A DNA stretch of 64,000 nucleotides from an uncultured Acidobacteriaceae bacterium (GTDB taxonomy: Bacteria > Acidobacteriota > Terriglobia > Terriglobales > Acidobacteriaceae): positions 70,848-134,847 of the forward strand of contig CAWIFE010000011.1 of the NCBI GenBank assembly GCA_963835355.1, given 5' to 3'. Shown in pieces: positions 11,907 to 45,700 of this stretch. A program made the translations under genes and the position numbers. Numbering within the stretch: the stretch's first letter is position 1; every line of letters starts with the position of its first letter. The notes below the pieces were generated by a model. The model had not been told where the DNA came from. It made no database searches and worked only from the letters and a program-made list of their open reading frames with translations.

Positions 11907-13228
11907 TTAGTCGCAAACCAGCGCAGCCTCGGGAAGAAATCCATGCGCCGCATCCGCTTCGACCGGACCGGCGACCGCCTTCGCCCTGCGCCGTGAAGAA
12001 CCGCTCCACTTCGCCCAGCACATGCAGGCCCAGTGCGCGCCCGGTAGATGGCCGCGCGCAGCTTCGCGCCGCCCGGCACGCCATGCGTAAACCACGTGGC
12101 AAACTGCTTCATCTTTCCTACCGGATCGCCCATCCTCGCGTCTCGCGGCAGATCCTTGGTCGCTTCGGCCTCGGTCAGCAGCATCTCAAAGTACGCCCGA
12201 ATCATCCGGTAGCGATCCAGATTCGTCGGCCGCTCGTAGCTGCTCGTCGCCGTGTACTGCGCAATTTGGCGAAAGATCCACGGGTTCGCCGGCGCCGCCC
12301 GCCCGATCATCACCGCATCGCAGCCCGTCTCAGCCACCATCGCCGCCGCGTCTTCCGGCGTGCGCACGTCGCCGTTCCCCATCACGGGAATCCCCACCGC
12401 CTGCTTCACTTGGGCAATCCAATGCCACTGCGCTTGTCCGCTGTAGCCCTGCTCGCGCGTCCGCGCATGCAGCGCCAATCCGTTCAGCCCTTCGGCCTCG
12501 GCCATCCGCGCCAACTCCACGCACACAATCTGCGAGTCGTTCCAGCCCATGCGGAACTTCACGGTGAAGGGAATCGTCACCGCCTTGCGAATCGCCCGGA
12601 AAATCTCGCCGATCTTCGGCAGATCCCGCAGCAGTCCCGACCCTCCGTTGCACCCCACCACGCGCTTCGCCGGGCAGCCCAGATTCAAATCCACCGTATC
12701 GAAGCCCGTCTCCTCAACAATGCGCGCCGCTTCGGCCAGCGTCTCGGCGTTTGACCCGAACAGTTGCGCTCCGATCGGATGCTCATCGTCGTAGAACGTC
12801 AGATACCGCCGTCGCTTCGTTTCCCTCATCCGCGCCAGCCCATCCGCCGACGTGAACTCGGTCATAATCAGCCCGCATCCTGACTCCACATTGCTGATCG
12901 CCGCTTCAACCTCGGCTGTCGCCGCTCCCTCGCTCCCTCGCTCCCTTGCTTCTTGCGCTTTGATCTCTGTTCTCTGATCTCTGTCGGGTGCCCCCGGTCC
13001 CTCGCATCTGGGGACCGGGGAGAGCAGGTTGGCATTTGAATTGGCGTCGGCGTTGCTGAACAAACTCGCGTGCCGTATAAATCTGCGGAACACCGTGTCC
13101 GTGACGCCCGCCATCGGCGCCAGCACCGTCGCCGGCCGCACCACCACCGCGCCCAGCCGCACCTCCGCCGGAACACGCGCCTCCGCAGGCATCGCGTGCT
13201 CCACTGGGTTGTCCCAGTCCTTCTTCAC
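11907..13228 (-). CDS. dusB: tRNA-dihydrouridine synthase (DusB family) with a repeat-derived in-frame insertion; two apparent +1 frameshifts near 12023 and 11985
   Basis: LAPMAGVTD, DLNLGCP, LHART, GNGDV and VMIGR. Correcting two extra bases gives ...TGPAVLGEVERFFTAQAKAVAGPVEADAAHGFLPEAALVCD*. Confidence 0.88.
12986..13020 (+). repeat. GGGTG-tagged REP-like hairpin inside dusB, preceded by 7/8-mer tandem repeats (12924-12983)
   Basis: gggtgcccccggtccctcgcatctggggaccgggg; same family as 18848, 34988 and 44493. Confidence 0.8.
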
Positions 13229-13260
13229 CGTGAATCCGCGGCGTGGCATAGGGGGCAGAC

Positions 13261-13851
13261 CTAAATCCTCACTTCGATATCGGGACGGCTCTTCGCCAGC
13301 AACCTGGTTTCGATTGCCTTTAGTTTTGCCGGGTCAACGCGAAAGCGCTCGGGAACAACAGCGATTTCGGCTGTTGGGGCCTCTTCGCCCTTTTCCTTAA
13401 TGGTGATAACGCCAAGACGCCCAATCCCATCCTCGGAAAACCCGAAATGCGCGAGCTCTCCAAAAGCTCGGTCGAAGCTCTCCACCGGAATTGCCAGATA
13501 CCGATAATGCGCGGGCAGGCACATCACCTTGCGATGAATGTCTCTGAGCTTCTCGATGTATTTAGCATCATGCGTTGCGTACACCTCGTTGTATTTCTTG
13601 GAGTTCGATGGGTCGATCCGTTGGCCCTCGAAAGGATTGAGATCGCGTGCCAGCTTGATCTCGACGGCGTGCAGGTCACCCGCACCAGCCCGATCTACGG
13701 CGAGCACGTCGGCTGCAATCAGACTCGCGGGCGGTTCAAGGTAAATATTGGGAACGGAAAGTGTCCTTCGCAAGAGCTCTGCAACGGCATTGATGGCGCG
13801 ACCTTCTCTCTGGCGCGTTGTCAGCTTCCGGGTTTCTTCCTTTACAGTCAT
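13261..13851 (-). CDS. Hypothetical protein with a PD-(D/E)XK nuclease-like motif
   Basis: AADVLAVDRAGAGDLHAVEIK fits D...(D/E)xK; lower GC than the flanks; ATG lies 4 nt after the upstream stop. Confidence 0.55.
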   Translation of the reverse strand: MTVKEETRKLTTRQREGRAINAVAELLRRTLSVPNIYLEPPASLIAADVLAVDRAGAGDLHAVEIKLARDLNPFEGQRIDPSNSKKYNEVYATHDAKYIEKLRDIHRKVMCLPAHYRYLAIPVESFDRAFGELAHFGFSEDGIGRLGVITIKEKGEEAPTAEIAVVPERFRVDPAKLKAIETRLLAKSRPDIEVRI

Positions 13852-13855
13852 GACA

Positions 13856-14257
13856 TCACCTTCCTTCCCGTTTTTGCAGAATCCGTTCCGCCCAAGCCCG
13901 AAATCGCTCGGCGGTTATACAGAGTGCCTCAACCCTTTCGTCGTCGACACGCTTTTCGCCATAGGAAATGTCTGTCTTAGTACTCATAAGCTTTTGATAG
14001 TGAGTGATCCCGTGCTGATCGATCTTCGCTCGAGTGCACGCTCGCCTTAGAGCGGTGACTGCTTCTCGATGGTTCTCGCCTCGTGGCCGTGTACCGCCGA
14101 GCCCAATCAAAACAGCATCGCTATAGGAGATGGCGCTGTGCACAGCCAGAAGTGCCGCGGCAGACGCGTAGGCCGACAGATCGTCCCGGCAGAGTTTCAT
14201 CGCGTCGGCAAGCTGTGTCGCCCGGCGATGGTAAACGGTGAAACTCGCCTCGGCCAT
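13856..14257 (-). CDS. HEPN-like helical protein (putative RNase toxin)
   Basis: 133 aa, all-helical; LLAVHSAISYSDA...RPRGENHREAV contains Rx(3-5)H; K..ISYG in the C-terminal half resembles small HEPN proteins. Confidence 0.6.
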   Translation of the reverse strand: MAEASFTVYHRRATQLADAMKLCRDDLSAYASAAALLAVHSAISYSDAVLIGLGGTRPRGENHREAVTALRRACTRAKIDQHGITHYQKLMSTKTDISYGEKRVDDERVEALCITAERFRAWAERILQKREGR

Positions 14258-14277
14258 GCATCACCATCATCGCATGT

Positions 14278-14304
14278 AAGAAAGCCCCCGCCGTGGCGGA
14301 GGCT
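14278..14304 (-). terminator. Weak intrinsic terminator after rpmE
   Basis: Minus strand AGCCTCCGC-CACG-GCGGGGGCT followed by TTCTT. Confidence 0.5.
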
Positions 14305-14317
14305 CGTCCCATCCTGT

Positions 14318-14349
14318 GGGTGCCCCCGGTCTCGGTTTTGAGACCGGGG
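14318..14349 (+). repeat. GGGTG-tagged REP-like hairpin (variant)
   Basis: gggtgcccccggtctcggttttgagaccgggg. Confidence 0.7.
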
Positions 14350-14358
14350 AATCTCGGC

Positions 14359-14589
14359 TTACTTCGCCGCCGCAATCGCCTTGTCGCTCTTCGCGTACTT
14401 CCGCCGGAACCGCTCTACGCGTCCCGCCGTGTCGACCAGCCTTTGTTTGCCGGTAAAGAACGGGTGGCAAACCGAGCAAATTTCCACGTGGATGTCGCCC
14501 TTGTGGGTCGACCGCGTTTCAAAACTGCTTCCGCAGGCACACATCACCCGCACCGCGGCGTAATTGGGATGAATCTTTTCCTTGGGCAT
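14359..14589 (-). CDS. rpmE: 50S ribosomal protein L31 (Zn-binding type A)
   Basis: [22 protein letters not shown] and GRVERF. Confidence 0.98.
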
Positions 14590-14625
14590 CGACAGACAGA
14601 CCTTTCCTGCAATTCTTCTCTCCTT

Positions 14626-14654
14626 ATTGTAGGGGGATTTGCCCGCTTTCGCAA
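14626..14654 (-). promoter_or_regulatory. Sigma-70 promoter of rpmE
   Basis: Minus strand TTGCGA-N17-TACAAT. Confidence 0.65.
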
Positions 14655-14754
14655 TTCCGGGGCAGGAAACTCAGAAAAGCAGCTTTTAGCCACTGGCTTC
14701 TAGCTGTTAGCTCGCATTGCATCGACTTACGGCTTCGGCCTAACCGCAAACGCT

Positions 14755-14842
14755 GGGTGCCCCAGGTCCCTTGCAATTGGGGACCTGGGACAGCACGAAC
14801 GCCGCACGCTGACTTGCTGACTCGCTGACTCGCTAACTCGCT
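14755..14842 (+). repeat. GGGTG-tagged REP-like hairpin (14755-14790) plus an 8-mer tandem repeat (14809-14842)
   Basis: gggtgccccaggtcccttgcaattggggacctggga; ctgacttg-ctgactcg-ctgactcg-ctaactcg. Confidence 0.7.
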
Positions 14843-14845
14843 GCT

Positions 14846-17800
14846 TCATCGAAAATCCCTCGACCGCACCTCCACTCGCGTAATCTCCAGCGGCACAATC
14901 CGCTGCGCCTTCACATGAATCACGCCCTCCTGGTTTTGCACCGGCCCCTCGATGCGCAGGAAACGGTTCCGCGTCACCACCACCCGGTCGCGCTCAAAAA
15001 CATCCGGCGTCAGAATCACGTTGGCAATCCCCGTCTCGTCCTCCAGCGACAAGAACACAAATCCCTTCGCCGTGCCCGGCCGCTGCCGCGCAATCACGCA
15101 TCCGGCAATCGCAACGCGCCTGCCGCTCCTTAACGCCTCCAGCTCTCTTGCCGAAAAAATCCCCTCTGTCCGCAACTCCATGCGGTGATACGCCATCGGA
15201 TGCGGTCCAGTCGTCAATCCCGTCCCCGCATAATCCGCCGCCAGCCGCTCCTCCGTCGTCATCTGCTTGAGCGGCATCGCCGCCGCGCGATCCGCAGCAG
15301 CCGCTCCGCCGCCGGAGTTTTTCTCGCTTGGCTCCGCTGTCGCGCCACACTGTTCTGCTGGTGCCCCATCATTCGGTCGCCGCGGCGACCGAAGGGTGGG
15401 AACCGCCGCTCTGTCGCGCCCATCCCCGCGTCCAGCCTCCGTCCCGCGCAGCAATGGTCCCACCGGCCTTCCCGCCCACTCCACCTGCCACAGCGCATCG
15501 CGCCTGTGCTCCACTTCGCCCAGGGAATTCAGCGCCCCAATCTGTGCCAGCGCCACCAGCTCTTTGCGGTTCAGCTCCGGAACACGCCGCGTCAAATCGT
15601 CCACGCTGGCGAATCCTCCCGCGCCGCGCGCCGCAATCACTGCTTCCGCCGAGCTCTGCCGCAATCCTTTCGCATAATTCATTCCCAGCCGCAGCGAAAT
15701 CGACCCATCCGCTTCCTTCTCCAGCGTGCACAGCCACTCCGAACGCTGCACGTCGATCGGCCGCACCCTCAGCCCATGCCGTTGCGCATCCTTCACCAGC
15801 ACCGCCGGCGAATAAAATCCCATCGGCTGGTTATTCAGCAATCCACACGTGAACGCCGCCAGAAAATGCACCTTCAAATACGCCGATGCATACGCGATCA
15901 GCGCAAAACTCGCCGCATGGCTCTCGGGAAATCCGTACATCGCGAACGACGAAATCCCCTGCACAATGTTGTCCTGCGCCGCCGCATCCACGCCGTTGCG
16001 CGTCATCCCATCGCGCAGCCGCCCCTCCAGGTCCTTCATCCGCTGCATCGATCGCCGCATGCCCACCGCGCGCCGCAGCTCTTCGGCCTCCGCGCCCGTA
16101 AAGCTCGCTACCACCATCGCCATGCGCAGCAGTTGTTCCTGAAACAGCGGCACGCCCAGCGTCCGCTTCAGCACCGGCTCCAGCAGCGGGTGCGGATACG
16201 TCACCTCCTCCTTGCCCTGCCTGCGCCGCATATATGGATGCATCATCTTGCCCACAATCGGTCCCGGCCTGATGATCGCCACCTGCACCACCAGATCGTA
16301 AAAACGCACCGGCGCGTTGTGCGGAATCGACGCCATCTGCGCGCGGCTCTCCACCTGGAACATCCCCACCGTGTCCGCCTTGCACAGCGTTTCGTACACC
16401 ACCGGATCTTCGGGCAGCAGCGCCAGGTCCACCTGCTTGCCGTAGTGCCGCGGGATCAATTCAATCGACTCCTTCAGCGCCGCCATCATCCCCAGCCCCA
16501 GCAGGTCCACCTTGATCAGTCCCATGTCGGCGCAATCTTCCTTGTCCCACTGGATCACCGTCCGCCCCGGCATCGACGCGCGCTCAATCGGGACCACACG
16601 ATTCAGCATTCCCGCGCAGATCACCATGCCGCCCGAGTGCTGCCCCAGGTGCCGCGGCAGATCCTTCATGCGCAGGCACAGGTCCAGATACCGCGCAATC
16701 CGCGGATGCCGCACATCGAATCCCGCCTGCGCAAAATGTTTCTCCATCGTGTCGTTCGGGCCGCGCCATTCCCAGTGGCCCATCAACCCCGACAATCGCG
16801 CCGACTGCTCCTCTTCGAATCCCAGCGCCTTGCCCACCTCGCGCGCCGCCGACCTCCCGCGATACGTGATCACGTTCGCCGTCATTGCCGAGCCCAGCGC
16901 GCCGTAGCGCTCATACACGTACTGGATTACCTGCTCGCGCTCGTCGCCCGATGCCAAATCGAGATCGATGTCCGGCCACTCGCCGCGGTTCTCGCTCAAA
17001 AATCTCTCGAACAGCAACTCCATCCCCACCGGATCAACCGCCGTAAGCTCCAGCGCGTAGCACACAGCCGAATTCGCCGCCGACCCGCGCCCCTGCACCA
17101 GAAATCCGCGCCACTGGCAGTAGCGAATAATGTCCCACACGATCAGGAAATAGCCCGCAAACCCCAGCTTCGCGATCAGCGCCAGCTCGTGCTTCACCTG
17201 CGCCCGCGCCCTCTGGAGCAAATGCCGCTTTGCCGGCGATCCGTACCGCTTGCGCACGCCCTCCTCCACGCGCTTGGCCAGAAAGCTGTCCATCGTCTCG
17301 CCTTCCGGCATCGAATAATGCGGAAATTCGTAGCCGAGATCTTTGAGCGAAAACTCCAGCCGCTCGCTCACAATGCGCGTGTTCGCAATCGCCTCGGGAA
17401 TGTCCTCGAACAGCGCCGCCATCTCGCGCGCCGTCCGCAGATGCCGCGCCGTATTCCGAGCCAGCAACCGCCCCGCGCGGTCCAGCGCCGTGTGGTTGCG
17501 GATCGCCGTGAACACGTCGAGCATCTCGCGGTCCTTCTCCTCCGCATAGCGCACGCCGTTGGTCGCAATCACCGGCAGGCCAAGGCTCTCCGCTGTACGA
17601 AGCAGCGATTGATTGCGGCACTCCTCTTCGCGCTCCTGGTGCCGCTGCAATTCCACGTACAAATTGCCGCGCCCATAAATCGCAGCCAGCCGCTCGGCAA
17701 TTTTTCGCGTCTCGCATTCTCCGCCGCGCGCGAGCGCCGCCGCCAGCGGTCCCTCCTCGCCGCCCGTCAGGCAAATCAGCCCCGCCGAAAACTCTTCCAG

Positions 17801-18364
17801 GTCTTCGACCGTCGCCGCGCCTTCCGCCTTCGTCGCCTCCCGCATCTTGAAGCGCGTAATCAGTTGGCACAGATTCTGGTAGCCAACCTGCGACGCGCAC
17901 AGCAGCACCACCCGCGCCGGCTCTTCGGGAAACTGATGCGGCAGCCATCCCGGCGGCGTCGCGCGGCTGCCCAGCGAAGACACCGCAATCTCCGCCCCAA
18001 TGTGCGCCTTCACGCGGCACGGTTGCGCCGCCGTGTGAAAGCGCGCCGCGCCGTACACGCCGTTCCGGTCAGCCAGCGCAATCGCCGGCATCTCCAGCTC
18101 CACTGCGCGCTGGATCAACTGCTCTGGCAGCGTCGCTCCGGCCAGAAAGCTGAATGCGCTCGTCGCGTGCAACTCAACGTATTCGCAATGATTCGCGTTC
18201 GCCGGTGGTTTTCGCTTGTCATCCTGAGCGAGGTCGCCTCGGCGACCGAGTCGAAGGATCTGCGGTTGCTCTTTGTCGGTTTGTTCTACAAGCTTCGATA
18301 CCGGCGGCTCGTACGCATCATTCGGATGGCACACAGGCGTCCCCGGCGAGTGTGCATTCGGCAC
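14846..18364 (-). CDS. dnaE2: Error-prone DNA polymerase III alpha (DnaE2/ImuC)
   Basis: YVELHATSAFSFL, GRGSAANS, PDIDLD, LGQHSGG, IKVDLLGLGM, GFPESHAASFA, RQRPGTAKG and C-terminal SRDFR. Confidence 0.97.
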   Translation of the reverse strand: MPNAHSPGTPVCHPNDAYEPPVSKLVEQTDKEQPQILRLGRRGDLAQDDKRKPPANANHCEYVELHATSAFSFLAGATLPEQLIQRAVELEMPAIALADRNGVYGAARFHTAAQPCRVKAHIGAEIAVSSLGSRATPPGWLPHQFPEEPARVVLLCASQVGYQNLCQLITRFKMREATKAEGAATVEDLEEFSAGLICLTGGEEGPLAAALARGGECETRKIAERLAAIYGRGNLYVELQRHQEREEECRNQSLLRTAESLGLPVIATNGVRYAEEKDREMLDVFTAIRNHTALDRAGRLLARNTARHLRTAREMAALFEDIPEAIANTRIVSERLEFSLKDLGYEFPHYSMPEGETMDSFLAKRVEEGVRKRYGSPAKRHLLQRARAQVKHELALIAKLGFAGYFLIVWDIIRYCQWRGFLVQGRGSAANSAVCYALELTAVDPVGMELLFERFLSENRGEWPDIDLDLASGDEREQVIQYVYERYGALGSAMTANVITYRGRSAAREVGKALGFEEEQSARLSGLMGHWEWRGPNDTMEKHFAQAGFDVRHPRIARYLDLCLRMKDLPRHLGQHSGGMVICAGMLNRVVPIERASMPGRTVIQWDKEDCADMGLIKVDLLGLGMMAALKESIELIPRHYGKQVDLALLPEDPVVYETLCKADTVGMFQVESRAQMASIPHNAPVRFYDLVVQVAIIRPGPIVGKMMHPYMRRRQGKEEVTYPHPLLEPVLKRTLGVPLFQEQLLRMAMVVASFTGAEAEELRRAVGMRRSMQRMKDLEGRLRDGMTRNGVDAAAQDNIVQGISSFAMYGFPESHAASFALIAYASAYLKVHFLAAFTCGLLNNQPMGFYSPAVLVKDAQRHGLRVRPIDVQRSEWLCTLEKEADGSISLRLGMNYAKGLRQSSAEAVIAARGAGGFASVDDLTRRVPELNRKELVALAQIGALNSLGEVEHRRDALWQVEWAGRPVGPLLRGTEAGRGDGRDRAAVPTLRSPRRPNDGAPAEQCGATAEPSEKNSGGGAAAADRAAAMPLKQMTTEERLAADYAGTGLTTGPHPMAYHRMELRTEGIFSARELEALRSGRRVAIAGCVIARQRPGTAKGFVFLSLEDETGIANVILTPDVFERDRVVVTRNRFLRIEGPVQNQEGVIHVKAQRIVPLEITRVEVRSRDFR
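15360..15401 (+). repeat. GGTG-tagged REP-like hairpin, in frame inside dnaE2
   Basis: ggtgccccatcattcggtcgccgcggcgaccgaagggtggga encodes VPTLRSPRRPNDGAP; related copies at 20586 and 30660. Confidence 0.75.
18217..18268 (+). repeat. TGTC/CGTC-type REP-like element in the dnaE2 5' region
   Basis: tgtcatcctgagcgaggtcgcctcggcgaccgagtcgaaggatctgcggttg. Confidence 0.75.
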
Positions 18365-18395: not shown

Positions 18396-20177
18396 TCAGT
18401 CGTAAAACGCCTCCAGCCGCCACGTATTCTGCCCTCGATCGCGCGTCAGCAGGCACGCCACAGATCGGCCGCCGTTCATTGCCGCCAGCACATCCCACTC
18501 CTCCGCGTCCCATGTGTCCAATTCCCACCAGCAACCGCTCGTCTTCCATGGCCCATACGCCGCCGCAATCTCGTACCGGTTCTCTCCATCGCTGAACGCA
18601 ACAGGCCTCATCACAGAAGTTTGAGTGCCCCCGGTTCGGGGTCCCCACGGACTGGTTTTCGTCCGTGGGGTGGAGATCCCTCGCATTTGACGACCGGGGT
18701 GAGCACTACACTGCGTACTCGCACGAAAAACTGATCCCTGATCCCTGATCCCTGATCCCTGTATTTGCACCCGCACCAACCGCGCCGGCCTCACGCGCCG
18801 CATCGCCATCCGCGGCGTCGCCTCCATCTCCGCTTCGCCACGATCATGGGTGCCCCCGGTCCCTCGCATTTGGGGACCGGGGTTAACAAACCCCTCCATC
18901 CGGAATCCGTCCGCGCGATGCGTATCCTCCAGCACCGGCGACCCCACGCGCTCCTCGCCCACCATCGCGCGCAACCGCGCCAGCGTCACATCCAGCCGCG
19001 AGGGCTCCGGTGTCTGCGGCGCAAACAATCCCAGCTGCACCTTGCTCTGCGCTCCCGCTTCGGCCCGCAACGTGAGCCGAACCACAGCCGCCTGCGGCGG
19101 ATGCGCTCCAATCTCCAGTTGCAGCAGCTTGAGCAGAAATTTCCGGTCAATCGTCGGCACCGCCGGCCGGATCGCACAACCATGCGTCACTCCGCCCTCC
19201 AGTCCCATCTCGGCCGTCAGCGAACGCAGTGCCAGCGCCCGTCCCGCGGCCCGCGTCGCCAGGCAATCGATCATCCGCGCGCCCACAAAGAGCAGGGAAT
19301 CGATCTGCTCCACCGGCATCTCGAACTCGCAAAACTCCTCGAGCGAAAACTCCGCCTCAATGGGCTCGAACGCATGCTCCGCTTCGCCGCGCGCCAGCGC
19401 CCGCCACACGCGCGCCTTCGGACCCATTCGCGCTACCAGTTCCGCCTCGGGCAGTGCCGCCAGTTCGCCCAGCGTGCCAATGCCCCACAGCGCGAAGGTC
19501 GTCGCGTACTCTTCATCCAGCCCCAATGCCGCAATCGGCAACTTGGCCAGCGCCTCTGCCTCCGCGCCTTCGCAGATCACCGCCGTCCCCTTGGCTCCTC
19601 CTTTGTAGCGCCGGTCTCCAGACCGGCTGTCGTGCGGGTCTCCCGACCCGCACTTACGAACGCGCATGCTCGCCGCCTTCATCCGCGCTGCATGGTAGTT
19701 CGCGCTCACCGCAATCGACGCGCGAAACCCAGCTGCAGCCAACTCCTCCTTCAGCCGCTCCGCCAACTGTGCCGGTGGCCCAAACAGCCGCTCCGTGCCC
19801 GCAATGTCCAGCACAAACGCGCACGCAGTTCCACTGCTGGCCCCAAGCGTGCTCGCATCATTCAAGCCCGCGCCGCCGCTGACCTCTTGAATCCGCGGAG
19901 AAAACTCCGCCGCGCACTCGAGCATTACCGCCCGCGCCGCCGCCTCGCTTTCCGCCGAGCGCTTGAGCAGACGCAGCCCCTGCATACTCTCCGCTTCAAG
20001 CCGCGTCATTCCCGCCGCCGCGCCCCTCCGCTCGGCCAGCCGGTTCAGTGAGCAGACCCACTCCTCGGGAGCGCGCCCATCCAGCACCACCACCGGTTCC
20101 GTCTGCCAGTCCGTCCGCAGCCGCAGCAGTGCCTGCGCGGGAAACTCCGCCGCCCATGCGCACGCAAAGAGGCTCAT
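18396..20177 (-). CDS. imuB: ImuB, Y-family polymerase-like protein, with three repeat-derived in-frame insertions
   Basis: PVVVLDG..PEEWVCSLN..A...G...GMTR, LDIAGTERLFG and AAYGPWKTSGCWW; ATG overlaps the imuA stop (ATGA); located between imuA and dnaE2. Confidence 0.92.
   Translation of the reverse strand: MSLFACAWAAEFPAQALLRLRTDWQTEPVVVLDGRAPEEWVCSLNRLAERRGAAAGMTRLEAESMQGLRLLKRSAESEAAARAVMLECAAEFSPRIQEVSGGAGLNDASTLGASSGTACAFVLDIAGTERLFGPPAQLAERLKEELAAAGFRASIAVSANYHAARMKAASMRVRKCGSGDPHDSRSGDRRYKGGAKGTAVICEGAEAEALAKLPIAALGLDEEYATTFALWGIGTLGELAALPEAELVARMGPKARVWRALARGEAEHAFEPIEAEFSLEEFCEFEMPVEQIDSLLFVGARMIDCLATRAAGRALALRSLTAEMGLEGGVTHGCAIRPAVPTIDRKFLLKLLQLEIGAHPPQAAVVRLTLRAEAGAQSKVQLGLFAPQTPEPSRLDVTLARLRAMVGEERVGSPVLEDTHRADGFRMEGFVNPGPQMRGTGGTHDRGEAEMEATPRMAMRRVRPARLVRVQIQGSGIRDQGSVFRASTQCSAHPGRQMRGISTPRTKTSPWGPRTGGTQTSVMRPVAFSDGENRYEIAAAYGPWKTSGCWWELDTWDAEEWDVLAAMNGGRSVACLLTRDRGQNTWRLEAFYD
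18623..18765 (+). repeat. Composite in-frame insertion in imuB: GGGGTCCCC element nested in a GRGTG hairpin, plus (CTGATCC)x4
   Basis: gagtgcccccggtt[cggggtccccacggactggttttcgtccgtggggtggaga]tccctcgcatttgacgaccgggg; tandem repeat at 18731-18761. Confidence 0.75.
18848..18882 (+). repeat. GGGTG-tagged REP-like hairpin, in frame in imuB
   Basis: gggtgcccccggtccctcgcatttggggaccgggg. Confidence 0.8.
19605..19653 (+). repeat. GTAG-tagged double-hairpin REP-like element, in frame in imuB
   Basis: gtagcgccggtctccagaccggctgtcgtgcgggtctcccgacccgcac encodes CGSGDPHDSRSGDRRY. Confidence 0.78.
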
Positions 20178-21052
20178 GCGCTTCTCTCCGCATCCCACGC
20201 CGCATGCGCCTGCCAGGTCGCGGCCGGCGGCTTTCGCGTCGTGATCTCGATCGGAGCTGACCGCTCTCTCTCGCGACGCACCGCAAACTCGAAGCCGCGC
20301 AGCACCGGCCCGCCCGCCGGCTCCACGCGCCGTGCCGAGCACTCCAGCACCACTGCCGCTGCCGACTTCGCATACCCGCGCGTCCCTACAACAATCAGGC
20401 TGCACTGCGTCCTCTCCGCCGCCTGCCTGTACCGGAACCACGTCGCCAGCGGAATCCTGCTCGCTTGCTCCGGCGCCGTATCGCCCAGGTCGAGCACAAT
20501 CGCCGCAAATCCCCCAGCCTGCAGCAGTAGGTCCGTCGCCCGCAACCCCTGGTCCAATCGCGCCCATGCGGAGCTCACCCACCGTGGGTTTGCCCCACCC
20601 TTTCGCACCGTCTGATCGCGCGAAGGGTGGGCTCTAGCGCCCTCGTTCCCTTCGCAATTTGTGCCCGAAGGGGTTCCTTGTTCCCTTGTTCCCTTGGTCC
20701 CTTGGTCCCTTGCTTTACACCGCATCCACAGCACCTGTTTCAGCCACACCCCATTCGCCGCGGCCGACTCCGGATCGAACGCGTCATTCACGTCCACCCA
20801 CGCGCACGCCCGCTCCTCCGCCGTCCTCTGCGCCACAAATTGGAGCGCCAGGCTCGTCCTCCCTGACGACGCCTCTCCTGTCACCTCGCTGATCGCGCCC
20901 ACCGGCAGTCCGCCATGCAACAGTTCGTCGACCGCCCGAATTCCCGTCGTCGCAACCTCGTACATCGCGCGCGGCGCAGGCGTCAGCGCTGCGGGAAACT
21001 TGCGTTCCAGCGCGTGCTCAATCTCCAAACGAAGTGCGGCGGCAGTAGGCAT
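20174..21052 (-). CDS. imuA: ImuA/RecA-like protein with an in-frame repeat insertion
   Basis: TGIRAVDELLHGGLPVGAISEVTGEASSGRTSLA, WVDVNDAFDPESA and LLLQAGGFAAIVLD; first gene of the imuAB-dnaE2 cassette. Confidence 0.9.
   Translation of the reverse strand: MPTAAALRLEIEHALERKFPAALTPAPRAMYEVATTGIRAVDELLHGGLPVGAISEVTGEASSGRTSLALQFVAQRTAEERACAWVDVNDAFDPESAAANGVWLKQVLWMRCKARDQGTKGTREQGTPSGTNCEGNEGARAHPSRDQTVRKGGANPRWVSSAWARLDQGLRATDLLLQAGGFAAIVLDLGDTAPEQASRIPLATWFRYRQAAERTQCSLIVVGTRGYAKSAAAVVLECSARRVEPAGGPVLRGFEFAVRRERERSAPIEITTRKPPAATWQAHAAWDAERSA
20586..20712 (+). repeat. REP-like hairpin (20586-20632) and 8-mer tandem (CCCTTGKT, 20676-20712), in frame in imuA
   Basis: gggtttgccccaccctttcgcaccgtctgatcgcgcgaagggtggg; ccttgtt-cccttgtt-cccttggt-cccttggt-ccct. 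Confidence 0.7.
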
Positions 21053-21294: not shown

Positions 21295-22845
21295 CTAACC
21301 CCGCTGCTTTTTTCCCACCAGCTCCGCCCTCGCCGCCAGCCCCATCGCCATCGCCATCACCCGGTCGTCGTGGGTCCCAGCCTGCGCCCCGCTCGTCCCA
21401 TTCGCCTGCCGCACAAAGCTCCGGCACTCCCCCAGCAGCCGCCGGCTCTGGAATCGCTCCGGCTCCTCCACCAGCGCCGCATTCAGGCGCCCCAGTATTG
21501 CCGGCCGGCTCACGCTCGTCGTCAGCCAACCCGCCTGCCCGCCCTGCCTATAAATTCGCCCGTACTTGCACGCCGTCTCCGCCAGCGCCAGCACGCCCGA
21601 GCCGTGGTTGTTCCGTTCCACCACCAGCCACGCCCCGTTGTATTCCGTCGCCAGATCGGTCACAAACCGCGCCAGTTCAAGCCCGCCGACGTGCCCGGCA
21701 AACTCCGCGCACTGCAACCCCGTCTCCATCTCCAGCACCTCGGCCGCGGAGTAGTCGCCTTCACTCCCGCCTCCTGCCGGATCCACCGACACCACGTACT
21801 CTCTGCCCTTCACCGGCGGCAGCCAAATCTCCAGCTCCCCATTCTGTCTCCGCTGCACCGGCTCGGGAACAGTCTTCATCCGTGCCTCCACCGCCGCCAG
21901 CTCAAACACGCTCTCGCCGCTCGCCAAAAAGCAGCTGTCCACATCCTCGGCAAACTCCTGCCGCGCCAATCCGCGAAAATCCGCACGAATTTGCCTCCGG
22001 TACCCGATCTGATTCAGATCAAGCCCGTGCGCCGTCATGAGCGCCCGCTCTTCCTCCGTCAGGCTCGCCTCGCTCACTGTCCTTGCCCGGTACCCTGGCT
22101 CCATCCACCACGGGAAAAAATGCCGCACCATCCCCGTCTCATCAGCCTTCAGCCACTCTTCGTGAAAGCACCCTCCCACTCCCTGCGGTGTCGACTCCAG
22201 CACCATCTCCGCTCCCGGCGCTAACGCCGCGCGCAATCCCGCCAGAATCTCCGCCGCGTCTCCGGGCCAGCGCGCAATCTCAGAGCAGTGCAGGTTCTGC
22301 ACCGTCAATCCCCGTCCCGCGTTCCGGTCGGCCGCGCTCACCACGCGATACTGCGCATCGATCCGCGGAAACACGATCTGCCGCACATTCGACCGCGCCG
22401 TCCTCAGCGCCCCTTTCCGGGCCCTGTCCGGCAGCCAATCCACAAACCGGTGCACGATGCGGAAAATCTCCTCCGCCGCCTCCTGCGTGTGCGCCACTTC
22501 CAGCGTTAGAGTTCCCGGCTGGGTGATCGTCTTTAGAAAAAATCGCGCAGCCACCCACGTCGTCAGTCCCATCTGCCGCGCCTTCAGCACAATGTTTCGC
22601 TGCCCGCGCCGCTTATCAAACGCCTGCTGCACGGCATTGGCCTTCAACATCGCTGGCTTTCCATCTCGCGTCCTCACCACCAGCACGGCTTCCGCCATCG
22701 CCATCGCCACAGTCCGCCCCCCCGCGATGTCTGACGGCGTATCCAGAATTTTTCCGAGTTGCTCCAGTTGCTCTCTGCCCAGCTTCCTCTGGATCGACTC
22801 GACTGCCAGTGCTCCAACTGAGCTTTCCTCATCCACTGCCGCCAC
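21295..22845 (-). CDS. Phage terminase large subunit (orphan)
   Basis: Walker A VLKARQMGLTTW, Walker B LHCSE, VLESTPQG, nuclease motifs VSVDPAGGG..GDYS, VVERNNHG and HDDRVMA. AGGAGG precedes GTG 22845. Confidence 0.9.
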   Translation of the reverse strand: MAAVDEESSVGALAVESIQRKLGREQLEQLGKILDTPSDIAGGRTVAMAMAEAVLVVRTRDGKPAMLKANAVQQAFDKRRGQRNIVLKARQMGLTTWVAARFFLKTITQPGTLTLEVAHTQEAAEEIFRIVHRFVDWLPDRARKGALRTARSNVRQIVFPRIDAQYRVVSAADRNAGRGLTVQNLHCSEIARWPGDAAEILAGLRAALAPGAEMVLESTPQGVGGCFHEEWLKADETGMVRHFFPWWMEPGYRARTVSEASLTEEERALMTAHGLDLNQIGYRRQIRADFRGLARQEFAEDVDSCFLASGESVFELAAVEARMKTVPEPVQRRQNGELEIWLPPVKGREYVVSVDPAGGGSEGDYSAAEVLEMETGLQCAEFAGHVGGLELARFVTDLATEYNGAWLVVERNNHGSGVLALAETACKYGRIYRQGGQAGWLTTSVSRPAILGRLNAALVEEPERFQSRRLLGECRSFVRQANGTSGAQAGTHDDRVMAMAMGLAARAELVGKKQRG

Positions 22846-23072
22846 CTGCCCCTCCTGCCCTCGTCCGGCATTCGTGCGCACACTTGCAGGCTTGGCGCAC
22901 GACTGCCCAGGTCGCGCGCCAAGCGAAGGCGCAACTCCGCCCCCGAGCCGCACCTCCGATCTCGCTCCATCAATCTGTGTTGTCTTTGTTGCGGCTGCCC
23001 TGTGTCGTATTTGTTAGAGGTGCCGCACCCTCATCACAGCGGTTTTGCTCTCAGGGCTCGATGCTCGCGCGC

Positions 23073-23148
23073 CCCTAAGTCCCTAAGTCCCTAAGTCCCT
23101 AAGTCCTTAAGTCCCTAAGTCCCTAAGTCCCTTGGTCCCTCGTTCCCC
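23073..23148 (+). repeat. Tandem 8-mer (CCCTAAGT)x7 plus two degenerate units
   Basis: Read directly; one unit is CCTTAAGT. The minus strand reads (ACTTAGGG)n. Confidence 0.95.
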
Positions 23149-23154
23149 GCCTTC

Positions 23155-34017: not shown

Positions 34018-34187
34018 GGGCGTCCGTGTCCGGGGTCCCCGCGGACAGGTCTTGGTCCGTGAGGTGGAAATCCCTCGCATTTGGGAACCCGGGATGCGAT
34101 GCCCCTCCAACTGACTCGCCGACTTGCCAACCTGCCAACTCGCCAACTCGCCAACTCCCCAACCCCGCTAACTCCGCTAACTCCGCT
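34018..34187 (+). repeat. Nested REP-like composite (34018-34094) followed by 8/9-mer tandem repeats (34109-34187)
   Basis: [cggggtccccgcggacaggtcttggtccgtgaggtggaaa]tccctcgcatttgggaacccggga; then ccaactcg units and ctaactccg units. Confidence 0.75.
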
Positions 34188-34208
34188 GTCTTGCATTACC
34201 ATTCCTCT

Positions 34209-36375
34209 ATGTTCCGGTCGTCGCGCAGCTTCCATTGCGTTGCCGCTCTTATCGCTCTCTGCGCCGCCTCCCTCGCCCACGCTCAAACCGCTGCTCCCGC
34301 ACAATCCACCGTCGCGCCACCTTCGGCACAGCTCAACGAAATCCTTTCCAGCCAGAACCGCGCCCGCACCATCGCTCAGGTCGCCGTCTCGCCCGATGGC
34401 AAGCGCATCGCCTTTCTTGAGGCCGGCCAGATTCGCCTCGCTTCGTTCAACAATCTGGTCCAAAGCCAACAAATCACCGCCGCGCCCGGCCAATCCTGCC
34501 CGGCCTCCAATCTCATCTGGTCGCCCGACTCCGCCTCCCTCGCCTTCCTTTCCGATTGCGACACCCCCCCCGACCAGCCCACTCAGCCCGATCTCTTCGT
34601 CTCTCATCTCGACGGCAATCCCGCCCATCGCCTCACCGAACTCCATGGTTACGTCGACGCGCCGGCTTTCTCTCCGGACGGAAAGAGCATCGCGTTTCTT
34701 TACGTCGAGGGCGCCACACGTCCCTCCGGCGCGCTCGCCGCGGAAACACCTCCCTCCGGCGTCATCGGAGAAGATCACATCGAGATTCAGCGCGTGGCCG
34801 CTGTCCCGGCCGATGCGTCCCAACCCGTTGCTCCCGGCTTCCTCACGCCGCCCAACCTTCACGTCTTCGAGTTCGATTGGTCGCCCGACTCCAAATCCCT
34901 CGCCTACATTGCCGCCGACCCTCCTGGCGAAAACAACTGGTGGGTCGCCAAACTCTATACGCAAAATCTGTCAGGCTCACAACGAGTGGGTGCCCCTGAT
35001 CCCTCGCACTTGGGGACCAGGGATAGCACGGACCCAACTCCCACCGTCATCCTTTCTCCCGCCGACGTCCCCGGCCCGCTCCACGGCCTGCAGATCGCCG
35101 TTCCTCGCTGGTCGCCCGACGGCAAATCCATCGCCTTCATCGCCGGCCTCATGAGCGATCAGGGCGTCACCGGTGGCGACGTCTGGGTCATCCCTTCTTC
35201 CGGCGGCATTCCGATCGATCTCACTCCCGGCCGTCCCGCCTCCGCCCAATGGATCACATGGGACGGTAACAACGGCATCTACGTCAGCGAACTTTCCGGC
35301 GGAGACTCTCAGCTCGTTCGCCTGCAGATTCCCGATCGCGGCGTCGCTACTGCAACCTCTGGCTCGCCCGTCTTCACCATTCCCGGCGATGTAGGTTCCA
35401 GCCAATTCGATCCCAGCCTCTCTGCCTCCGCCGATCGCTCTCTCTTCGTCTTTCAGGCCAGCTCATTCAACACCCCGCCCGAAATCTTCGCCGCCCGCGC
35501 CAAACAGGATTCGTCCGCCCGCTCGGCAGACACCGCGCGCCTGTTCCAGCTCTCTCACTTCAACGACGGCGTCAAGCCGTTCCTGGGGCGATTCCGTTTC
35601 GCTCTCATGGAAGAACGACGGCTTTCAGATTCAGGGTTGGCTCCTGCTTCCCAAAGATTTCGATCCGGCGAAGAAGTATCCGCTCCTCGTCGAAGTCCAC
35701 GGCGGCCCGGCCTCCTCAGTGACCTCGCGCTGGGACGGCGGAGCAGGCGGCTTCAGCGCCACAACTTTTTCCACGCTCGGCTACTTTGTCCTCTTGCCCA
35801 ATCCCCGTGGCAGCTACGGTCAGGGCGAAGCCTTCACCGAGGCCAATCGCAAGGACTTCGGATACGGTGACCTGCGCGACATACTCGCCGGTGTCGATAC
35901 CGTTCTCGCTAGGTATCCCGTTGATCCCAATCGCATCGGCATTGCCGGCTGGAGCTATGGCGGCTTCATCACCATGTTCGCCGTCACCCAGACCCATCGC
36001 TTCCGCGCCGCCGTCGCCGGAGCGGGCATCTCCGATTGGCTCTCCTACTACGGCGAAAACTCCATCGATCAGTGGATGATCCCCTACTTCGGCGCTTCCG
36101 TTTATGACGACCCCGCGATTTATGCGAAGAGTTCGCCCATCACATTCATCGAACAGGTGAAAACTCCAACCCTCACTGTCGTGGGCGACCGCGATGGCGA
36201 ATGTCCCGCGCCGCAGTCCTTCGAGTTCTGGCATGCGCTGCGCGACCTGCACATCCCGGCGCAGTTAGTCGTATATCCCAATGAAGGCCACGGCTTCTCC
36301 GATCCAGCCGACCGCCGCGATGTCCTCGAGAGAGCGGTCGATTGGTTTGCCCGCTACATGCCGTCCAACCCCTAG
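34209..36375 (+). CDS. Secreted S9 family peptidase (dipeptidyl aminopeptidase/acylaminoacyl peptidase); +1 frameshift near 35580
   Basis: PD40-like WSPDGK repeats. Correction restores KPSWGDSVSLSWKNDGFQIQGWLLLP...VEVHGGP; catalytic GWSYGG, GDRD and EGHG. Confidence 0.9.
34988..35023 (+). repeat. GGGTG-tagged REP-like hairpin, in frame in the S9 peptidase
   Basis: gggtgcccctgatccctcgcacttggggaccaggga encodes GAPDPSHLGTRD. Confidence 0.8.
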
Positions 36376-40722: not shown

Positions 40723-40738
40723 CTTCTACAATCGACTC

Positions 40739-42698: not shown

Positions 42699-42798
42699 CC
42701 CTCCCGGCCTCGCTCGTCGAGCGCCCGTCCGGGCCACTGTTCTATGCATTGCGTCCTGCTCCAACAGCCGCCTCTCCGGGGCGCGCTACCATTGCAGC

Positions 42799-45700
42799 GT
42801 GAGCTCTTCCACGTTTGCCATCCTCTCCAATCTCACATCGCTCGCCCATGAGCAATTTTCGGCTCACCGTGAGCTTGAGGCCCTGCTGAAGAAATCTCTT
42901 CGCGGCCCGGCTTCCTCTGATCTTGTCCGCTTCGATCTCGGCTCGCGCGCGCTTTACGCTGCCGATGCTTCGAACTACCGCCAGTTGCCCGTAGGTGTCA
43001 TTTTTCCCCGTGATGCGGCAGACGTTGAAGCCGCCCTGGCCGCTTGCCGCGCCACCGGCGCCGCAGTTCTCCCGCGCGGCGCGGGTACCAGTCTTGCCGG
43101 CCAGTGCGTCAACGTGGCAGTGGTCTTCGACTATTCGCGCCACATGAATGCGCTCACCTCGATCGATCCCAACACAAAACTGGCCCGAGTGGAGCCAGGC
43201 ATCGTTCTCGACCGCCTTCGCGACGCGGCAGAACTCCACCACCTCACCTACGCCCCCGATCCGGCCACCCACTCCCGCTGCACCCTCGGCGGCATGATCG
43301 GCAACAACAGTTGCGGCGTCCATGGCCTGCTCGGCGGCAAAGTCGTTGACAACGTGGAATCGCTCGACGTCGTCCTCTACGACGGCACGCGCATGACCGT
43401 CGGCCCCACTCCGCCCGATCGCCTCGATGCTCTCATCCGCGCCGGCGGCCGCATCGGCCAAATCTACTCCGGCCTCGCCCGCATCCGCGACCGTTACGCT
43501 TCCCTCGTCCGCGAAAAGTTTCCTCGCATCCCGCGGCGCGTCTCCGGCTACAACCTCGACGAGCTCCTGCCCGAAAACAACTTCCACGTGGCCCGCGCAC
43601 TGGTCGGCTCCGAGGGAACCTGCGCCAACATCGTCTCCGCCACTCTCAACCTCACCGCCAGCCCGCCCTTCCGCGTGCTCACCGTGCTTGGCTTCAACGA
43701 TCCCTTCCTTGCCGCCGACGCGGTTCCGCTCGCTCTCGAGCACAAGCCCATCGGCCTCGAAGGCTTCGATTCTCTCCTGATCGATTTCATGCGCCGCAAG
43801 GGCCTCGCGCTGCGCGAACTCGACCAACTTCCTCCCGGCGTGGGCTTCTTGCTCGTCGAAATGGGCGCGTGGTCTCCCGAAGAGGCTCGAGCCAAGGCCG
43901 ACGCATTGGCGCACGCCTCACAGTCCTGGCCGTCGCCGCCGGTCGCTCACATCTGCGCGCCCGACGAGGCCGCTGCAGTGTGGCACGTGCGCGAATCCGC
44001 GCTCGGCGCAATGGTCTTCGTGCCCGGCGAGCCCGACCGCTGGGAAGGCTGGGAGGACGCCGCCGTTCCGCCCGCGCGCCTCGGCGCCTATTTGCGTGCC
44101 ATCACCGGGCTCATGGCCGAGTATGGCTTCCGCAGCCCGCTCTACGGCCACTACGGGCAGGGCTGCGTCCACATGCGCGTCAATTTCGACTTTCGCAGCG
44201 CCGAGGGCATACGCATCTTCCGCGAGTTCATCGAACGCGCTGCCGATACCGTGCTCTCCTTCGGCGGGTCGCTCTCCGGCGAACATGGCGACGGCCAGGC
44301 CCGCGCCGCTCTACTGCCGAAAATGTTCGGGCCTGAGCTCATCAATGCCTTCCGCGAATTCAAGGCGCTCTGGGACCCCGACAACCGCATGAATCCCGGC
44401 AAGCTTTCAGATGCCGCGCGTGTCTATGACCCCACCGAGAACCTGCGCCACCCGCTCACAGCGGGTGCCTCATCCGAACAAGCCACGGATGTGGGTGCCC
44501 CTGATCCCTCGCATTTGGGGATCAGGGAGACCCATTTCGCTTTCGCCAAAGACGATGGCTCTCTCGAACGCGCCACCGAGCGGTGTGTCGGTGTCGGCTC
44601 GTGCCGCAACACTGTGGGCGGCGTCATGTGTCCCAGCTACCGCGCCACTGGAGAGGAGCAGCACTCCACCCGCGGCCGCGCTCATCTGTTGTCGGAGATG
44701 CTCGTCGGAGCCCTTCGCGGCGAAGGCTTCCAGAGCCGCGCCGTCGACGAGGCCCTCGATCTCTGCTTGAGCTGCAAGGCCTGCAAATCCGAGTGCCCGG
44801 TGCAGGTGGACATGGCCGCCTACAAGTCGGAGTTCCTTTGGCAGCGCTATAAAGGCCGGCTGCACCCGCTCCACCATTACATCTTCGGCTTCGCCGACCG
44901 CCTCGCGCGCTACGGCTCGCTCGCCCCATCCCTCACCAATGCGATCTTGACCGGCTCTCTCACGAGCCCGCTCGTCAAGCGCATCGCCGGCGTAGCGCGC
45001 GAGCGCCAGTTGCCGCGCCTGGCGGCGAAAAGCTACCAAAGGACACGAGGTACCCATTCTTCAAGCGGGACTGCTTCGCGCGGAGCGCAATTGCCTGGAC
45101 GGCCAGTCCTGCTTTGGCCTGACACATGGAACAACTACTATCACCCGCAATCGCTTTCCGCCGCCGAAACCGTTCTCACGCAAGCCGGGTTTCAGGTCGA
45201 AGTTCCTCGCGGCCACATCTGCTGCGGCCGTCCGCTCTACGATTTCGGTCTTCTCGGCGCGGCCCGCTCCTACCTCTCTCGCGTCCTCGACCGCATGGCT
45301 CCGCAAATTGAGGCCGGCCTGCCCTTCATCTTCCTCGAGCCGAGCTGCGCCAGCGTCTTCAAAGATGAGCTGCCGGAACTTTTCCCAGACGATCGCCGCG
45401 CTCAGCTCTTGAGCCGGCAGGTCTGGCTTCTTGCCGACTGGCTCGCCGATCGCGCGCCGGATTTTGCTGTCGGCCGCCTTCAAGGCGCGCACATCCTCAT
45501 TCACGGCCACTGCCATCACAAAGCCGTCTTTGGCGGTCCGGCCAGCGAAATCGCTTTGCTCCGCAAGGCGGGCGCCACGGTCGAGTCCATCCAGGCCGGG
45601 TGCTGCGGGATGGCAGGCCCTTTCGGCTTCGAAGCCGGCAAATTTGAAATCTCTAAAACCATCGCTAACCAGGGTCTGCTCCCCGCCGTTCAATCCGCCG

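Follow-up and report, generated by a model that had tools for sequence, protein, structure and literature searches.

Why should the proteins of a mutasome be interrupted, repeatedly and in frame, by short palindromic and tandem repeats? The locus that raises this question lies in a 64,000-nucleotide stretch of DNA (the window; C11:70848-134847 of genome G000) from a peat-soil, Terracidiphilus-like member of the Acidobacteriaceae, the genome of which comprises 4.62 Mb in 28 contigs (~60% G+C). In the window, RecA-like ImuA, Y-family-like ImuB and DnaE2 are encoded in one operon, the imuA-imuB-dnaE2 cassette; the gene order was kept in 62 relatives. An examination of the letters alone (the sequence-only reading) had proposed that hairpins resembling repetitive extragenic palindromes (REPs) and tandem arrays are inserted in frame in at least seven proteins of the window, with six insertion regions located in the 6.2-kb cassette. 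Six of these proteins were upheld by alignments and orthologues; the case of a giant fibre protein, with a repeat at its N-terminus, was ambiguous, as it depends on the start codon. All six regions of the cassette were delimited against the closest relative. The explanation that we regard as probable, though by no means assured, is that REPs and arrays insert, that the insertions survive in tolerant loops, and that the mutasome accumulates them through tolerance.

Insertions were delimited by protein and DNA alignment to the closest relative, G011 (locus L016; ~86-93% amino-acid identity). As had been claimed from the sequence, the frame was unbroken: all delimited lengths were multiples of 3. 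Every insert proved to be a member of a dispersed hairpin family or of a tandem array. The positions, net lengths and readings of the inserts are collected in Table 1. One DnaE2 insert precedes the PHP domain and the other falls in the linker that joins HhH to OB; in this (HHH_6-OB) linker, gains of 27, 9 and 3 nt (9, 3 and 1 residues) over G011 were found, and the linker hairpin folds at -17.4 kcal/mol (z = -4.7). An AlphaFold2 model of ImuB resembles Dpo4/DinB (Foldseek, 1e-17). Its predicted local distance difference test score (pLDDT) falls below 50 at residues 176-194, 410-456 and 475-519, which correspond to the three inserts, the third of which (residues ~471-524) folds at -22 kcal/mol (z = -3.2). 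The motif QLGLF, which we take to be the established beta-clamp-binding motif of ImuB, was (nearly) invariant in 44 sequences (Q381, G383, L384, F385). A longer open reading frame (ORF) of imuB reaches 20582 and overlaps imuA. The ImuA insert comprises residues 113-161, with pLDDT below 50 at 116-142 and 146-158.

An independent conspecific assembly (L146; 99.6% identical) was used as a control on assembly and gene calling. Zero differences from the window were found within any insert, and the L146 gene calls (ImuA, 292; ImuB, 593; DnaE2, 1172 residues) equal the lengths in the window. Because L146 has identical inserts and an independent gene caller gave the same protein lengths, the insertions are neither an assembly artefact nor a product of ORF calling; for the core cases, that reading was rejected. 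Moreover, the imuB, imuA, dnaE2-linker and dusB inserts, and that in an S9 peptidase, are bracketed on both sides by conserved, aligned protein. Mis-called ORFs might still apply at two places outside the cassette, i.e., the hairpin and array at 34028-34183 and the REP of the fibre gene, either of which may precede the true start codon. As an account of the insertions at large, artefact can be given only the slightest probability.

Genes were called with a simple in-house codon model (3,652 genes in G000), and gene identities were taken from Pfam profile matches. Repeats were mapped with words of k = 16 and a count of at least 4, long repeats being masked; at k = 13, the map was swamped by codon-biased, G+C-rich words. 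Short-repeat intervals occurred at 0.088/kb in coding sequences (CDS) and 0.87/kb between genes, i.e., they were tenfold rarer in CDS. Against this background, imuB was the top gene of 3,652 with four intervals (equalled by one other gene), and imuA-imuB-dnaE2 ranked first of 3,597 triplets of adjacent genes, with seven intervals versus 0.55 expected (p = 2e-6). The proposed concentration in the mutasome, at a density above the genome average, was thus confirmed genome-wide. An orthologue test was also performed on 236 G000-G011 pairs (243 kb of CDS), with insertions scored in G000. Six of the 23 insertions of at least 6 residues fell in the cassette (0.42 expected, p = 5e-6) and one in dusB. 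Six insertions had at least 20 residues; four of these were in imuA-imuB-dnaE2 and the fifth was in dusB. The remaining insertions relative to G011 were Pro/Ala-rich linker insertions or deletions (indels). In the loci of the 62 relatives, perfect stems of at least 9 bp, counted without regard to family, had a density of 0.143/kb in imu genes versus 0.065/kb in flanking CDS (p = 7e-4); the latter value is near the chance density of such stems, ~0.05/kb by a rough hand estimate.

Table 1. Positions of the mutasome genes, their inserts and the other repeat-bearing features. Coordinates are those of the window unless a contig is named.
Feature	Position	Strand	Details
dnaE2 (imuC), error-prone Pol III alpha homologue	14846-18364	-	Pfam PHP, DNA_pol3_alpha, finger, HHH_6, OB; 93% identical to G011
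dnaE2 N-terminal insert, family F (TTGTCATCCTGAGCGAGG...GAAGGATCTGCGGTTGC)	18205-18280	+	+60 nt/+20 aa vs G011; read ...EQPQILRLGRRGDLAQDDKRK...
dnaE2 linker insert, GGTGCCCC-headed hairpin with nested palindrome TTCGGTCGCCGCGGCGACCGAA	15360-15405	+	k-mer repeat
imuB, Y-family-polymerase-like mutasome subunit	18396-20177	-	593 aa; Pfam IMS; core ~494 aa in orthologues
imuB insert 1, family C double hairpin	19593-19664	+	+72 nt; read VRKCGSGDPHDSRSGDRRYKGGAK; residues 173-196; -20.3 kcal/mol, z = -4.5
imuB insert 2, perfect-consensus hairpin A	18846-18882 (hairpin A, 18849-18882)	+	+33 nt; read PGPQMRGTGGT; residues ~432-447
imuB insert 3	~18620-18762	+	+144 nt; hairpin A split by nested hairpin B (GGGGTCCCCACGGAC...GTCCGTGGGG), then CTGATCC x4.4
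imuA, RecA-like mutasome subunit	20174-21052	-	Pfam RecA 4e-12; 292 aa vs 258 aa in G011
imuA insert	~20570-20712	+	+102 nt; hairpin CCCACCCTTTCGC...GCGAAGGGTGGG and GGTCCCTT/GTTCCCTT x5 array; read KARDQGTKGTREQGTPSGTNCEGNEGARAHPSRDQTVRKGGANPRWVSS
Candidate LexA box GAACAAAAGGCGAAA	21075-21089	-	~37 nt upstream of imuA start
Intergenic hairpin A (14756-14789) and CGCTGACT x4.6 array (14807-14843)	14756-14843	+	directly downstream of dnaE2 stop
dusB, tRNA-dihydrouridine synthase B	11762-13249	-	Pfam Dus 2e-74
dusB insert	12910-13030	+	CGCTCCCT x3.5 (12923-12950), TCTCTGT x3 (12964-12984), hairpin A (12987-13020)
REP hairpin (GGTTGCCCCATCCTTTTCGC...GCGAAAAAGGTGGG)	30660-30705	+	5' end of giant fibre gene; read TFFAKNAKRMGQP if upstream ATG used
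S9/TolB-like peptidase, PD40 repeats	34026-35870	+	Pfam
Composite hairpin (34028-34093) and 8-mer array (34114-34183)	34028-34183	+	upstream of conserved S9 part
Hairpin A between PD40 repeats of S9 peptidase	34989-35022	+	in frame, read GAPDPSHLGTRD
FAD/Fe-S oxidoreductase	42799-45822	+	Pfam
Hairpin A in FAD-oxidase_C/4Fe-4S linker of FAD/Fe-S oxidoreductase	44494-44527	+	read GAPDPSHLGIRE
TrmD, repeat-split	C11:155026-156174
MnmG, repeat-split	C1:327647-329830
UvrA, repeat-split	C18:41924-44986
Lhr, repeat-split	C8:406939-411876
CCA-adding enzyme, repeat-split	C24:171341-172873

The relatives were obtained by an ImuB search, which returned metagenome-assembled genomes (MAGs) of Terracidiphilus and Acidobacteriaceae from peat and soil. 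ORFs were intact in 47 ImuB, 51 ImuA and 27 DnaE2 orthologues, and the proteins varied widely in length (ImuB, 493-645; ImuA, 252-342; DnaE2, 1101-1203 residues). Insertions recurred at particular sites: after core columns 95, 156, 396, 423 and 468 of ImuB, where other repeats occupied the same loops in orthologues; at columns 112-134 of ImuA (51 orthologues); and at the N-terminus and columns 962-970 of DnaE2. Repeat families, positions and lengths varied by lineage, and no insert was conserved genus-wide. Among 28 DnaE2 sequences, no insertion of at least 8 residues was found in core columns 43-961, the 2.7-kb structured core. As this core belongs to the same operon, it serves as an internal control, and its freedom from insertions points to strong filtering by structural tolerance. 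The sequence-only reading had expected the inserts in surface loops, and this agrees with the low pLDDT of those in ImuB and ImuA, the alpha1-beta2 loop that harbors the DusB insert, and the interdomain linker of DnaE2.

Relaxed selection on a rarely expressed operon had been offered as one cause of the accumulation. For G000 versus G011, the ratio of nonsynonymous to synonymous substitution rates (dN/dS) was 0.155 for imuB (80th percentile), 0.19 for imuA (89th), 0.11 for dnaE2 (57th) and 0.12 for dusB; the median over 236 genes was 0.10. The imuA and imuB values exceed the median, which lends the idea weak support, and all lie far below 1, which indicates that the cores of the cassette genes are under purifying selection. 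Selection is only mildly relaxed for imuA and imuB. The more radical notion, that both the cassette and the remaining hosts consist of pseudogenes or nearly neutral sequences in which repeats pile up as junk, could draw on these raised ratios and on frameshifts in dusB, the S9 peptidase and the fibre gene (see below). It was rejected in its pseudogene form on the dN/dS values (0.11-0.19) and the intact orthologues; in addition, every insertion keeps the frame, and the dusB frameshift is absent from L146. We therefore consider decay highly improbable.

As for the inserted elements themselves, repeat finders recovered hairpin A, a 34-nt hairpin (GGTGCCCCnGnTCCCTCGCATTTGGGGAnCnGGG), along with further palindromes and numerous 7-9-mer arrays. 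Copies were counted with a Hamming scan (a fuzzy-regex scan had missed known copies), which gave 65 hits genome-wide versus one for the reversed pattern. Fifty copies (77%) were intergenic, 13 were inside CDS and two were at gene edges; the S9 peptidase gene was missed by the codon-model calls, so its copy was tallied as intergenic. Hairpin A, in which a 10-bp stem closes a 9-nt loop, folds as single-stranded DNA (ssDNA) at -12.9 to -15.4 kcal/mol, and contains no stop codon in any of the six frames. Its extended consensus is ...CCACAAAAGAAT-GGGTGCCCC...GGGG-ATAGCACGAACCC, and compensatory stem variants distinguish the copies: CCCCAGG/CCTGGGG, CCCCTGG/CCAGGGG, CTGATCCC/GGGATCAG, CCCCAGGTCCC/GGGACCTGGG, CCCCTGGTCCC/GGGACCAGGG and CCCCTGATCCC/GGGATCAGGG. 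Orientation matched the sign of the local GC skew in 58 of the 65 copies (p = 4e-11), and all seven copies in the window are oriented alike; relative to gene direction, copies in CDS showed no preference (eight same, seven opposite). Families C and F were found at 23 and 20 places genome-wide, respectively, 18 of them intergenic in each case, and families C and E fold as ssDNA with z = -4.5 and -4.7. Composite, nested hairpins occur in the window (hairpin A interrupted by hairpin B; nested palindromes). The GTAG/CGTC tag of the two REP superfamilies described by Di Nocera, De Gregorio & Rocco (2013; PMC3733652) was absent, the head being (T)GGGTGCCCC and the tail GGGGATAGCACGAACCC. The elements are REP-like in behavior yet outside both described superfamilies. 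An Rfam search of 11-46 kb of the window matched no known RNA family.

Five Y1 transposase genes (Y1_Tnp; type IS200/IS605 and REP-associated tyrosine transposase, RAYT) are present in G000, and three of them are flanked by REP arrays of families other than hairpin A. The gene at C24:161897-162433 is preceded by five REP units and followed by one in inverted orientation. The GGGTGCCCC head is common to hairpin A, this C24-flanking family and a third family, and relatives carry the C24-flanking family as an in-frame segment of ImuB, ImuA and DusB that reads ...DKNKGVARVGHP. The Y1 transposase at C2:6415-6867 is bordered by units akin to family F. Three loci in which a Y1 gene is accompanied by its own REP units are REPtron-like (C24:161455-162470, C2:132529-133864 and C2:5407-5999): one is preceded by five units of ~101 nt and followed by an inverted copy, in another a 53-78-nt unit is present as three and two copies, and one has an array of 'GTCATCCCGAGCGAAGC...' units akin to family F.

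Tandem arrays are the second class of insert. In G000, 464 arrays of period 7, 8, 14 or 16 were found; of the 277 with period 7 or 8, 223 (80%) were intergenic and 15 were in CDS. Strand bias was moderate, in that the G/C bias of the array unit tracked the local GC skew in 308 arrays and ran against it in 144. Common units were AAACTGTG, AACCACT, CCCTTGGT and AAGCTAG, and examples in the window start at 5204, 14807, 21268, 23073, 30933, 37840, 40690 and 60946. Tight coupling of arrays to hairpin A was rejected: an array lay within 100 nt of nine of the 65 copies, although this is 5 times the chance frequency.

The arrays bear on a possible adaptive role, in which the inserts would tune the mutasome through mRNA hairpins that restrict expression, new peptide loops that change the contacts among ImuA, ImuB and DnaE2, or slippage of the arrays that turns imuA/imuB on and off (a phase-variable mutasome). 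Four of the 15 intragenic 7/8-mer arrays are in dusB, imuB or imuA, at 12923-12984, 18731-18762 and 20672-20712, and, because units of 7 or 8 nt are not multiples of 3, one unit more or fewer would change the reading frame. The same loops have been struck repeatedly and independently in the 47 ImuB and 51 ImuA orthologues, and it has been speculated that REPs within repair genes may yield mutators (PMC3733652). Set against these points, the arrays are short (3-5 units), their density in the relatives' imu genes is not significantly raised, and conspecific assemblies are identical inside every insert. The inserts shun folded parts of the proteins, as neutral passengers would, and their lineage-specific families, positions and lengths, none conserved across the genus, do not favor selected function. 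The suggestion of the sequence-only reading that hairpins have a role during SOS expression is likewise without support, positions and families differing by lineage. We judge adaptive modulation to be distinctly improbable.

The preferred explanation, survival in tolerant loops, can be broken into parts of unequal strength. We are highly confident that selfish elements of REP type and tandem arrays make up the inserts, either recent (absent from G011) or older (shared and diverged). We are equally confident that only those inserts compatible with reading frame and protein fold persist, and that translation most likely turns them into additional disordered loops. The REPs would most likely be mobilized as ssDNA by the RAYT-type Y1 transposases of the same genome. 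Genic insertions would survive only if their length is a multiple of 3, if they bring no stop codon, and if they enter a flexible loop or an interdomain linker; the insert would then be translated as an additional unstructured peptide, and junction-spanning peptides (e.g., ...NPGPQMRGTGGTHDR...) are predicted from the reading of the inserts. One repeat in a loop may become a landing pad for more via nesting and arrays, giving rise to intragenic REP clusters; the composite hairpins and the multi-module DusB loops speak for this. That repeat-bearing loops attract further repeats, and that the cassette accumulates them owing to long ImuA/ImuB linkers and conditional, low abundance, is proposed with moderate confidence. 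The cassette would be conditionally expressed and its products of low abundance, so that extra loops would cost little. The least secure step is the attribution of the highest accumulation to the long disordered linkers of ImuA and ImuB.

Several observations weigh against this account. The cross-genome enrichment of hairpins is modest (2.2-fold, under a strict hairpin definition), and arrays were not significantly enriched in the imu genes of the 62 relatives' loci. Other long-linker proteins carry only ordinary Pro/Ala-rich indels in the G000-G011 comparison, and the dN/dS of the cassette is no outlier, hence there is no gross relaxation of selection. It is not obvious how tolerance by itself would place the cassette first among 3,597 triplets. 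Hairpin A does not directly flank any RAYT gene, the connection being the common head sequence only. Finally, hairpin A is regionally clustered, with seven of its 65 copies in the 64-kb window (p = 3e-5), which implies that the supply of insertions via local hopping may count alongside survival. Given this clustering and a rare variant common to two copies in the window (see below), tolerance may not be the sole cause.

These last points belong to a further alternative, namely that the supply is targeted: damage-activated transposition of REPs as ssDNA by RAYTs would be directed into the LexA-controlled cassette, at a time when its strong transcription lays single strands bare, and into other damage-induced genes. 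IS200/IS605 elements in Deinococcus undergo damage-induced transposition. Orientation tied to the replication strand (58/65) fits a single-strand mechanism; the regional clustering and the rare variant suggest local hopping; and the hosts elsewhere in the genome include UvrA, a UvrC-like protein, Lhr and DprA. A candidate LexA box (GAACAAAAGGCGAAA) upstream of imuA was found at equal distance in 25 of 49 relatives' loci, versus a background of 0.017 per 250 nt; its assignment to LexA presumes the GTTCN7GTTC box reported for Acidobacterium capsulatum. The motif, of the direct-repeat GTTCN7GTTC type, sits just after a promoter-like TTGACA-N18-TACATT. A scan for GAACN7GAAC at seven or more of 8 positions revealed no enrichment (630 of 3,637 genes versus 11 of 49 repeat hosts), the motif being too degenerate to discriminate, and a perfect GAACN7GAAC box was present in none of the repeat hosts other than the cassette. 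Copies in CDS are unbiased relative to transcription (eight versus seven), and many hosts are constitutive tRNA-modification genes. The 2.7-kb dnaE2 core, which shares operon and transcription with the inserts, is insertion-free in 28 genomes, so that survival filtering is clearly operating. Targeted supply is accordingly regarded as unlikely, and survival in tolerant loops is retained as the better account.

The dusB gene of the window also carries a repeat-derived insert. Relative to G011 it has gained 72 nt (24 residues), comprising hairpin A and a tail, beside 8-mer and 7-mer arrays; on the minus strand, the insert is read ...LLSPVPRCEGPGAPDRDQRTEI.... When aligned to E. coli DusB (PDB 6ei9), residues 58-121 replace two residues in the alpha1-beta2 loop. 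In 119 homologues, this loop spans 24-81 residues and is pieced together from modules that stem from arrays (RDQRTEI...), from hairpin A (QVPKCEGPGAP) and from other REPs. The 3' end of dusB is apparently frameshifted in the window, where a cluster of indels was found at 11936-12024 versus L146; the conspecific DusB (P0001) has 444 residues and a normal C-terminus, and the frameshift may be an assembly error. Next to dusB, the interval 13241-14282 comprises 1042 nt in the window and 442 nt in L146 (a 600-nt difference); the 196-residue ORF at 13261-13851 has no Pfam match, and L146 has a 124-residue DUF1801 gene at that place.

Two further genes carry hairpin A between protein repeats or between domains. 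The sequence-only reading had treated equally long homologous loops in repeat-free orthologues as an argument against insertion. Such a loop was found for the FAD/Fe-S linker, which is equally long and of unrelated sequence in orthologues; it is repeat-derived with no net gain in length. The S9 peptidase copy was missing from eight of ten orthologues, and a diverged copy occupies the same site in G011, which indicates that this insertion is older. The left-arm variant CCCCTGATCCC was present genome-wide only in the S9 and FAD/Fe-S copies, 9.5 kb apart; a compensating change accompanies it in the FAD/Fe-S copy but not in the S9 copy. The sharing of this rare arm suggests local copying, by hopping or gene conversion. 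The hairpin and array that precede the conserved part of the S9 peptidase are probably 5' untranslated sequence rather than coding, because orthologues align only from about residue 58 of the ORF. The S9 gene is frameshifted near 35590, and orthologues continue in the frame of the ORF at 35719-36375.

At the 5' end of the giant fibre gene, the CCCCAT head of the REP provides ATGGGG on the coding strand, i.e., an alternative ATG that opens a clean signal peptide (MGQPIAACAVMMMLAAATMMAQA); the repeat may thus donate the start codon. A frameshift at ~30447 parts the N-terminal ~100 residues from the main ORF (the conspecific call has 2532 residues). For the frameshifts in dusB, the fibre gene and the S9 peptidase, the choice is between consensus errors of a long-read MAG and genuine disruptions of recent date. 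Directly upstream of imuA (21295-30447) are a terminase-like gene, which had no Pfam match, and a 2,430-residue fibre-like gene; G011 is without the fibre gene here.

Beyond the window, and absent from the sequence-only reading, repeats were found in many other genes for DNA repair and for tRNA/rRNA modification, a bias on record since 2013 (PMC3733652). Other hosts in G000 act on DNA (UvrA, a UvrC-like protein, Lhr helicase, DprA) or on RNA (TrmD, MnmG, TsaD, TrmJ, RluB, CCA-adding enzyme, LeuRS, NusA), and some are unrelated enzymes or transporters (PurL, EgtB, LarC, GlgA, IolD and more). Proteins acting on DNA or RNA made up 16 of 31 annotated hosts versus two of 13 annotated random controls (one-sided p = 0.026; both samples are small). 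In TrmD, MnmG, UvrA, Lhr and the CCA-adding enzyme, profile matches were broken into several stretches by repeat-derived inserts; TrmD has 382 residues versus a profile of 221 positions. The host bias reproduces that of Di Nocera et al. (2013), here for unrelated repeat families in a new phylum. In that study, intragenic REPs were concentrated in replication/repair genes, DnaE2 included, and in tRNA enzymes, and the pattern was judged unlikely to be fortuitous. As here, those elements are short, G+C-rich palindromes, mostly intergenic with an in-frame minority; their hosts are skewed to DNA repair (UvrA, error-prone DnaE2) and tRNA/RNA enzymes; and the inserts are often clusters encoding 20-80 residues, with a link to the RAYT tyrosine transposase. 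The differences are that the head is GGGTGCCCC rather than GTAG/CGTC and that the host is an acidobacterium. ImuA and ImuB are missing from that paper's text ('ImuB' gave 0 matches), whereas several unrelated families and 7/8-mer arrays here converge on one operon, with the enrichment quantified genome-wide and in 62 relatives.

Other known repeat systems resemble the present one in part. Y1 genes flanked by their own inverted REPs (as at the C24 locus), dispersed copies with compensatory stem changes, and units that cluster and nest are features shared with the RAYT-associated REPIN doublets and REP mosaics (BIMEs) of Pseudomonas and E. coli; unlike REPINs, most copies of hairpin A stand singly and not in inverted doublets, and its coding fraction (13-14 of 65 copies) is unusually high. 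Heterocystous cyanobacteria possess short tandemly repeated repetitive (STRR) heptamers, i.e., strand-biased intergenic arrays of 7-nt units that number in the hundreds. Compared with these, the arrays described here have other units in another phylum, 8-mers are equally common, and some arrays are in frame within genes beside REP hairpins. Rickettsia palindromic elements are ~100-150 bp long and are found in an obligate intracellular lineage; a transposase for them is not known. The elements here are REPs of 35-70 nt; their bias towards one replication strand is strong, and the genome encodes RAYTs. The parallel drawn by the sequence-only reading to these elements holds for repeat-derived, frame-preserving additions in predicted unstructured loops, and in the accounts of Ogata et al. 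(2000) as cited in PMC3733652 and PMC3184786 they are likewise palindromic, selfish repeats inserted in frame, at sites tolerant of the added peptides, in genes that remain functional. The likeness is one of behavior only, membership in that family being unlikely given the phylum and length.

The cassette is the most repeat-laden locus of its genome and an unusually clear case of selfish DNA adding peptide loops to living proteins. For annotation, it follows that ImuA, ImuB, DusB, TrmD, UvrA and others in these genomes are 10-40% longer than their families by virtue of repeat loops, which should not be taken for new domains. Because the pattern recurs in a new phylum with unrelated repeat families, tolerance versus targeting becomes testable. 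That the link between palindromic repeats and the mutasome is a general, cross-phylum rule with a mechanistic cause (targeted transposition, or selected tuning or on-off loops), and not an artefact of tolerance, seems to us doubtful at present. If the bias does have such a cause, mobile-element activity would be tied to the control of stress-induced mutagenesis.

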